From the NCBI GenBank assembly GCA_001724265.1, contig MEDY01000212.1, positions 1 to 64,000 on the forward strand: a stretch of 64,000 bases of DNA, given 5' to 3'. Below are positions 45,275 through 47,177 of this stretch, piece by piece; within the stretch, counting starts at the first letter, position 1, and each line of letters starts with the position of its first letter. The position numbers were made by a program, and so were the translations under genes. The DNA comes from Rhizaria sp. SCN 62-66 (taxonomy: Eukaryota). The notes under the pieces were generated by a model. It worked only from the letters and a program-made list of their open reading frames with translations, searched no databases and had not been told where the DNA came from.

Positions 45275-47177
45275 ATGTCTCAAGAGTCTGCTCCAGCAGC
45301 AGCAGCAGCAGCAGCAGCTGATTCGAGCGTCCCCAGTCCGTGCAAGCACGACGAAGCTCGGGACGACGCCAACAAGCAGCTGGCCGTGTGCCCCATTCTG
45401 CGCATACCGCGCTTCGACGACTGGCACCTGCACCTGCGCGACGGCGCCGCGCTACCCGAGTACGTCTGGGCGTCTGCGCAGCGGTGCCGGCGAGCGCTGG
45501 TAATGCCAAACCTGGCGCCCCCCGTCACCACCACTGCGGCCGCGCTGGCCTACCGCGCGCGCATCCTCGCCGCGCTCGCCGCCGCCGCCGCGCGCCGCGG
45601 GCTGGCCGCTCCGCCGCCCTTCACGCCGCTGATGACGCTCTACTTGACGGAGGCCACGACGGCGGAGGAGATCGCGCTCGCGGCCCGCTCGGGTGCGGTC
45701 GTGGCCGCGAAGCTCTACCCCGCCGGCGCCACCACCAACGCGGCCCAGGGAGTGCGGGATATAGCCCGGCTGGACCCCGTGCTGCGCGCAATGGCCCGCG
45801 CAGGACTCGTGCTGTGCGTGCACGGTGAAACGACGGACCCGGCCACGGACGTGTTCGATCGGGAGGCGCAGTTCATCGCCACTGTGCTCGTGCCGCTGCT
45901 GGCCCGGCACCCGCGGCTGCACGTGGTCATGGAACACGTGACCTCCGCCGCCGCGGTCGCGCTCGTCGACGCTGACACAGTCCCGGCAAACACGCAGACA
46001 CCAACGCAAACGCATGCAGCGGGCGCTTCAAGTGCCGGCGCAAACGCTGCTTCAAGTTGTTCAAGTGTGCCTATCGCGGGGCGCGTTGCCGCGACGATCA
46101 CCCCGCAACACATGCTGTTCTCGCGCAACGCGCTGTTCCTGGGCGGCAAGCTGCGTCCGCACGCCTACTGCCTACCCGTGTACAAGACGGAGCGCGACCG
46201 CTGGGCGGTGGCGGGCGCGGCCGCGGGTACCGGGGTCAGGCACCCAGAGCGGTTCTTCGCCGGGACCGACTCCGCGCCGCACGCAATAGACGCAAAATGT
46301 AAGAAAAAGCATACGACTAGCAGTTTTAAGTTGTTATATAGTCAATATCCTTGTTATATCCCTCAAAAAAATGGTTTCGCCTATCTTTAACCACCCCTCA
46401 CTTCCCTCACTTGTGCCGCTTGTCTGTCCTCACTCGCGCCCGTAACCAGAGTGCTCCGCCTGCTGCGCGGGCTGCTATACGGCGCCGGATGCCGCCGCGC
46501 TGTACGCGGAGGCCTTTCTGCGCCACGCCGAGGCGCTGCTGCTGGCCGGCGACCTCACCGCGGCAGCCACGGTGACCGTGGGCCGGTTGCGCGCCTTCCT
46601 GGCGCGGGACGGTGCCGCGTTCTACGCCCGTGCTGCCCGCGCGGCCAGAGCGGCCGCGGAGGGGACGGCAACGGAGGGCAACCCTGCTGGCGATGACAAC
46701 CGCTCCAGCAGTGGCAGTGGCAGTGCGGGGGGCGCGGACCCCGCGCTGTTGGCCGCACTCGACTTGCCGCAGCACAGCACCGCGACGGCGACTGAGAACA
46801 ATGACAGCAGAGACAGCAACGACGACAGCAGCGACGGGCTGGTGTTGCTGCACTGCCGCTGCGACTGCTGCTGCTGCGGCAACGGCGGCGGAGGCGGCGG
46901 CGGCGGCCCGCGCGGGTGCCCCGCAGGCGCCCCGGGCTGCTGTCTCACGCGGGCCAACAACGAGCAGGCGCAGGCTCTACAACTGCAACAGCAGCAGCAA
47001 AGTGACTACAACGACGATGCGGCGGCGGTGACAGTGCGGATGGCGGCGGCAATGGCGGTGCGCCTGCGGTGGACACACGCCGCACACGTCACAGAGTGCG
47101 CAGAAGGCAGAAAGGTCTCCGAGTGCACAGAAGTAACTCTCGGGAGCAGCGGCGTTAGCAGCGTTGGTAAGCAGTGA
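45275..47177 (+). CDS. pyrC: Class II (PyrC/URA4-type, stand-alone) dihydroorotase; exons 45275-46298 and 46450-47177 (could extend to TGA 47329-47331 if there is a +1 indel near 47142)
   Basis: [80 protein letters not shown], then after the intron [27 protein letters not shown]. Confidence 0.95.
46299..46449 (+). other. Intron of dihydroorotase gene (151 nt, phase 1); splicing creates a T|AG codon
   Basis: GTAAGA donor, ACCAG acceptor; a TAA at 46443 in the exon-2 frame constrains the acceptor position. Confidence 0.85.

Follow-up and report, generated by a model that had tools for sequence, protein, structure and literature searches.

How does a cell make dihydroorotase when splicing of the transcript appears to place a stop codon inside one of the most conserved segments of the enzyme? 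The question is raised by a gene at positions 45275-47177 of a 64,000-nucleotide stretch of DNA assigned to Rhizaria sp. SCN 62-66 (contig MEDY01000212.1, positions 1 to 64,000; hereafter the window). The canonical splice, which is supported by the sequence and whose use in RNA we infer, joins position 46298 to position 46450 and gives TAG. On balance, the gene probably encodes a working E. coli-type (class II) dihydroorotase with one phase-1 spliceosomal intron, and TAG is probably a rare sense codon in this organism, most likely for glutamate (Glu), with UAA and UGA ending genes.

The dihydroorotase gene and its split codon

The first exon (45275-46298, forward strand) starts at an ATG at 45275, and its frame aligns with E. 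coli-type dihydroorotases as far as the exon's 3' end, GCA AAA T (46292-46298), before entering AT-rich sequence. The next segment of dihydroorotase is matched by a second frame from 46452. The corresponding exon (46450-47177, forward strand) starts AG TGC TCC, carries low-complexity inserts and ends in a TGA at 47175-47177. Between the two exons lies a phase-1 GT-AG intron of 151 nucleotides (46299-46449, forward strand) that begins GTAAGA and, after a pyrimidine-rich 3' part, ends in CCAG (46446-46449); its AT-rich core has about 35% G+C, against about 65-70% in the exons. Homologues were found with E values of 1e-74 to 1e-94, and PDB dihydroorotases with E values of 1e-60 to 1e-68. The amidohydrolase domain PF01979 is precomputed on P0002, the window's own dihydroorotase protein. 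EHVTS, TDSAPH and the remaining metal and substrate motifs are kept in the window enzyme and are invariant relative to P0003, its closest relative; the roles of the HxH, carboxylated lysine (Lys), two-histidine and Asp-x-x-x-His motifs we take to be those of the E. coli structure papers. Family and the metal and substrate motifs are shared with E. coli-type PyrC, and the ...DSAPH....K-E-..C.CAG... segment can be traced if the TAG is counted; the window gene differs from PyrC in its eukaryotic intron, its low-complexity inserts and its long C-terminal extension.

In all, 91 GT/GC-AG or AT-AC pairs leave exon 2 in its frame. Donor 46299, the only one of the local GTAnGn type, has four in-frame acceptors. 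Those at 46320, 46323 and 46341 run into a TAA at 46443-46445 in the exon-2 frame, and a TAG stands at the junction (AAA-T/AG-TGC) because 46449, the sole acceptor that avoids this TAA, gives one. The codon thus split has its first base, T, at 46298, where P0002 gives cysteine (Cys; TGT), and its last two bases, AG, at 46450-46451, as read from the sequence, the homologue column and the splice-pair listing. Three other intron candidates in the window (42290, 43869 and 50559) start GTATGA, GTACGC and GTACGA. The one at 50559-50713 (GTACGA...ACCAG), in a P-type ATPase gene, is confirmed by the relatives P0123-P0125, in which FIITSVNSEW stands opposite the spliced FIIQ/AVSNEW. To stay free of stops and retain both DSAPH and CSACCAG, an alternative splice must start at the donor GTTTTA (46323), GTCAAT (46341) or GTTTCG (46374), and these insert 9, 15 and 26 residues, respectively (junction codon counted), at a point where 118 of the 119 homologues have no insertion.

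The first-pass annotation of this DNA had proposed the same junction, GCA AAA T joined to AG TGC TCC, and had argued that the TAA at 46443 leaves the donor one usable acceptor; the sequence and the splice listing are as it described. Its remark that such a TAG is invisible to a scan for open reading frames (ORFs) is correct but unremarkable, as a phase-1 intron can split any sense codon. The split codon is not a special mechanism; it would be a rare sense TAG that a phase-1 intron happens to cut. Splicing would give the mRNA AAA-UAG-UGC, and the ribosome would insert an amino acid, most likely glutamate, at the UAG and go on to complete a full-length enzyme. Decoding would depend on a tRNA with anticodon CUA and on a release factor that leaves UAG unread.

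Two further features of the intron region were recorded. The intron holds ATATCCTT (46345-46352) and TCTTTAAC (46385-46392), which are similar to the U12-type consensus for donor and branch site; U12-type splicing was set aside, since no AT-AC pair yields a sensible protein. Genomic DNA across the acceptor reads CCA GAG TGC (P-E-C) in the exon-2 frame, the GAG at 46449-46451 consisting of the last intron G and the AG of exon 2.

Homologue columns were counted over 119 of the 120 matches listed, P0002 being left out. The column of the TAG is Glu in 118 of the 119 aligned homologues; the sole exception is P0003, because its gene call reads through its own intron. The solved dihydroorotase 4lfy_A also has Glu at this column and reads ACGCAGCYTA over the CAG segment, for which 1j79_A was compared as well. 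After the TAG the window has CSACCAG, against (S/A)ACGCAG in the homologues, and the expected spacing from DSAPH to CAG holds only if the TAG codon is counted. The dihydroorotase site is the best-conserved TAG site in the window. With the class II alignment run, the first-pass placement of the TAG in a usually-Glu column is upheld, and so is its point that a stop here would truncate the enzyme, with loss of the CAGC segment and the whole C-terminal part. Its further claim, that the TAG must be decoded, gains support from sequence comparison and from other long frames that contain TAG where relatives continue gap-free.

P0003, encoded on a metagenome contig of 3931 bases, shares 68% identity with the window protein over the aligned part. 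Its protein was called by a prokaryote-style gene finder. After the shared Lys it reads glycine (GGN), 34 pyrimidine-rich codons and then Arg-Val, which fits AGR GTN. The glycine implies an exon base G and a G/GT donor, and the Arg-Val implies an AG/ acceptor and a split codon GAG or GGG. Past this acceptor, 9 of 12 positions in the +1 frame are compatible with window exon 2, an unambiguous Cys among them. Back-translated from the protein in this way, the P0003 intron would be 103 nucleotides long, in phase 1 and in the same codon as the window intron. The T of the split codon most likely derives from the G of an ancestral G/AG (GAG), apparently still present in this nearest relative. A search among longer proteins gave 35 matches, none of them close, the named ones being mostly plant and algal fusions. 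A metagenome scan with an alignment of P0001 and P0003 gave at least 80 loci, mainly bacterial dihydroorotases with a best identity of 55%, and the P0003 contig was not among the matches listed.

TAG codons elsewhere in the window

Eight in-frame TAGs, the split codon included, were found in at least four genes, and no TAA or TGA lies inside those frames. Four are in a giant surface-protein gene on the forward strand, read in the frames 3-2432, 2114-8044 and 7707-14573, which is 68% identical to a relative's gene over 4016 aligned positions. At 333-335 the relative P0324 has Glu: FARFD-X-YRFETLVKV stands against FARFDEYRFETLVKV in a segment of 88.5% identity, and the two proteins agree at 23 of the 24 flanking residues shown. 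The TAGs at 6638-6640 and 7550-7552 each lie in a complete four-cysteine sushi repeat, and the relative P0277 has glutamine (Gln) at both. The fourth, at 11439-11441, falls in a disordered loop between 1138 and 1043 open codons, where the relatives have an indel. On the reverse strand, ORF reading placed two TAGs, 30797-30799 and 24797-24799, in one low-complexity ORF of 4206 codons, the second exactly between two copies of GCGCCGGGCGCT (24785-24811, APGA-X-APGA), and another at 56208-56210, in ..CRDED-X-SQQRQQQQQ.. between 442 and 335 open codons.

P0324 and P0277, found by exhaustive search, run gap-free across the TAGs at 333, 6638 and 7550 with a sense residue at each, and so none of the three can be the end of a gene or of an intron. 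Six stops in the window have at least 300 open codons on both sides, and five of them are TAG (6638, 11439, 30799, 24799 and 56210), one is TAA and none is TGA. The lone TAA sits upstream, in AT-rich sequence. Among stop triplets TGA is the most frequent in each of the six frames, yet no TGA has at least 300 open codons on both sides. With TAG treated as open, 14 frames end in TGA (9) or TAA (5), by construction of the frames; 13 of the 14 have no TAG near the end, which in so small a sample is weak evidence either way.

One further TAG, at 20227, was not used as evidence. It lies in a C2H2 zinc-finger unit (20133-20230, forward strand) that has a TGA at the first Cys, a TAA at a Tyr and this TAG at the Glu of HTGEKP, and it was set aside because the same unit has TGA and TAA in frame. 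Each of the three stops is one base from the repeat consensus, the unit has no indel, and it cannot be spliced out in frame by any GT-AG pair; a dead finger, or a break where one gene gives way to another, may explain it.

In the relative, the giant gene is represented by two gene calls with about 50 codons between them (the C-terminus of P0324 and the N-terminus of P0277), at a place that corresponds to about 5560-5730 of the window. The start of P0277 aligns with a window valine (probably a GTG start), and the relative may carry an in-frame stop of its own there.

The meaning of UAG and the alternatives

A UAG-only reassignment at the level of the organism, probably to Glu, rests on eight codons. 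If TAG is sense, Glu is the favoured residue, Gln has a markedly smaller though appreciable share of the probability, and another or a mixed assignment takes up the small remainder. Two conserved sites, the dihydroorotase column and TAG-333, point to Glu, and two variable sushi sites align with Gln. Leucine (Leu), the meaning of UAG in the rhizarian exLh, was considered and rejected, with no support at any of the four informative sites.

Several observations weigh against a sense TAG read as Glu. In-frame TAG is very rare, with 5 in 13,223 codons compared with 439 GAG and 362 CAG (12 of the 14 segments), or about 0.4 per 1000. The search of the window for tRNA genes found none, the search of the window against Rfam families gave no match, and no release factor gene was seen in the window. 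In the 4206-codon reverse-strand ORF a TAG at 22418-22420 stands four codons before the TAA (...NIKQ-TAG-PRP-TAA); it may end translation, or its position may be chance. The giant gene, which bears four of the TAGs, changes frame twice relative to P0324/P0277, at about 2132-2159, where the relative has 16 extra residues, and at about 8003-8025, where 19 bases link two conserved blocks. These changes could be real frameshifts, signs of a decaying gene or assembly indels, and the giant gene, or the assembly there, may be imperfect. In the dihydroorotase itself, the TAG-flanking segment lacks, at three positions, a residue that 102 to 117 of the 119 homologues share; next to the TAG the window has A where 116 of the 119 have C, and C where 117 have G. 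The Glu column may therefore be less constrained here than in the homologues.

The last of these points also counts in favour of the strongest alternative, in which the splice and the recoding are the same and UAG means Gln, so that the enzyme would have Gln at the conserved Glu. Gln is the commonest known reassignment of stop codons in eukaryotes. A CAG is one transition from TAG and is common in these frames. In P0277, the nearest relative (70% identity), Gln stands opposite the sushi TAGs at 6638 and 7550, and the residues immediately beside it are unchanged (GANTL-Q-P and TP-Q-YGT). Where the relative of the giant gene has Gln (n = 127), the window has Gln 81 times, Glu 6 times and TAG twice; where the relative has Glu (n = 168), the window has Glu 121 times and TAG once. 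Taken alone, this gene pair would slightly favour Gln, with the reservation that the genetic code assumed in the gene calling of P0277 may affect its Gln residues. Both sushi columns vary in more distant homologues (N, S, A and T) and so say little on the residue required. The dihydroorotase column, by comparison, is Glu in all homologues except P0003, whose own codon begins with G. TAG-333 stands opposite Glu within a nearly identical block, and at positions where the relative has Glu, Gln does not rank among the top eight residues of the window, each of which is seen at 2 or more of the 168. We consider UAG as Gln an unlikely but serious competitor.

The standard code is a much poorer candidate, and improbable overall. 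It would make the T at 46298 a nonsense mutation, a strain variant or a base error, in a gene that is broken or whose codon is truly GAG. A single G-to-T change from the relative's G/AG would suffice, and another gene of the window, the giant one, has two frame changes. Both dihydroorotase exons are, however, otherwise intact, with all catalytic motifs present. A base error is further opposed by P0002, which also has the T (TGT) and whose cluster is on four contigs, all shorter than the window, the longest of 59,252 bases. The seven additional in-frame TAGs interrupt long frames in at least three other genes with no TAA or TGA among them; random damage is an unlikely source, as it would not yield only TAG.

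Slightly less probable again is the use of a weaker downstream donor, with part of the AT-rich stretch coding. The donor at 46374 (GTTTCG) would give ...K, 25 residues and GAG (E) before CSACC, which restores the Glu, and that at 46323 (GTTTTA) would put in 8 residues and then AAG (K); read with the standard code, both products lack stops. The four intron donors read in the window all carry A at +3 and G at +5, and neither of these two does. The 9 to 26 residues that downstream donors insert would come from DNA of about 35% G+C and would fill a place left without insertion by all but one of the homologues, and the intron of P0003 begins directly after the Lys and one base. Some protist lineages have non-canonical introns, and a TG...CA intron at 46298-46448 would use the genomic GAG at 46449-46451 to supply the conserved Glu (mRNA AAA-GAG-TGC), but this is scarcely credible with a perfect GTAAGA...CCAG pair one base away and another intron of the window confirmed as GT-AG, and the GAG is there because an AG/AG acceptor yields it automatically.

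Among the sense readings, a more specific form can be put forward tentatively, at clearly short of an even chance: UAG alone would mean Glu, and UAA and UGA would keep their role as stops, in an uncultured GC-rich eukaryote of wastewater and activated sludge, at an early stage in which UAG supplies about 1% of Glu codons. If that holds, and with the same reserve, the dihydroorotase codon may have passed from GAG to UAG by a synonymous change that fell on a split codon.

Genomic setting and comparison with known codes

The window is eukaryotic DNA in which G+C is very high in the reading frames (up to 0.77 in 2-kilobase windows), A+T dominates the spacers and introns, and CAG/GCA repeats abound. 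A classifier based on G+C at third codon positions (GC3) failed to separate coding from non-coding frames here, and ORF length and homology were used instead. DNA of the window occurs in wastewater and activated-sludge runs; four of six runs, from two studies, hold part of the gene, and one of those holding part of it is a poly-A RNA library (share 0.43). The neighbouring gene at 50144-53686 (forward strand) encodes a Na+/Ca2+-type (ENA-like) P-type ATPase, with a phase-0 intron at 50559-50713 and no in-frame TAG. Its closest relatives are 53-61% identical and its named matches (trypanosomatids, Andalucia and fungi) 35-45%, the best of these being trypanosomatids at 38-44%. A putative cyclophilin-like frame, recognised by its motifs, lies at 21355-22038 on the reverse strand, has no in-frame TAG and ends in TAA.

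Codes that give UAG and UAA different meanings are rare. If the proposed code is true, the window holds a low-usage case of UAG capture in a GC-rich non-ciliate, with UAG about once in 2000 codons. Standard-code gene finders would truncate or split the genes of such an organism and would miss TAGs that splicing creates. As a marker of the assignment, no single site in the window would be cleaner than that of dihydroorotase, provided that the residue is Glu. A literature search, with supplementary files outside its scope, found no description of this organism, nor of a GC-rich non-ciliate that reads UAG as Glu and keeps UAA and UGA as stops. One oligohymenophorean ciliate reportedly reads UAG as Glu and UAA as Lys.

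In the oligohymenophorean ciliate, UAA and UAG each stand for an amino acid of their own (PMC10553269). The code proposed here shares with it a meaning of UAG separate from that of UAA (PMC10553269) and differs in that UAA, also sense in the ciliate, is a stop. Codes of this kind bear on how a stop codon can be captured by a tRNA with anticodon CUA when a release factor still reads UAA (PMC11687900, PMC5304391).

Peritrich ciliates read both UAA and UAG as Glu (PMC11687900). A stop codon of the UAA/UAG (UAR) pair read as Glu is thus common to the peritrich code (PMC11687900) and the one proposed here; in peritrichs both codons are recoded, whereas in the window UAA ends 5 of the 14 frames and never interrupts a long one. 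Unlike in peritrichs, the DNA is GC-rich, with many genes per 64 kilobases, introns of 100-220 nucleotides and no ciliate affinity in the P-type ATPase matches. In Blastocrithidia, UAA and UAG mean Glu and UGA means tryptophan (PMC12153298). UAG as Glu in a non-ciliate protist is the shared feature (PMC12153298), but all three stops are recoded there, whereas here TGA and TAA close frames and cis-spliced introns are present.

The closest parallels in the use of UAG as sense while UAA stays a stop are the rhizarian exLh, Iotanema spirale and the phyllopharyngean ciliates. UAG means Leu in exLh, with 384 in-frame UAGs in 71 genes, and Gln in Iotanema spirale (PMC5304391); in phyllopharyngeans it means Leu or Gln (PMC11687900). 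For such UAG-only reassignments the authors of both papers infer the need for a tRNA with anticodon CUA (PMC5304391, PMC11687900), the same agent as is suggested here. UAG is far rarer in the window than in exLh (PMC5304391), and where those lineages read it as Leu or Gln, the two conserved sites in the window point to Glu.

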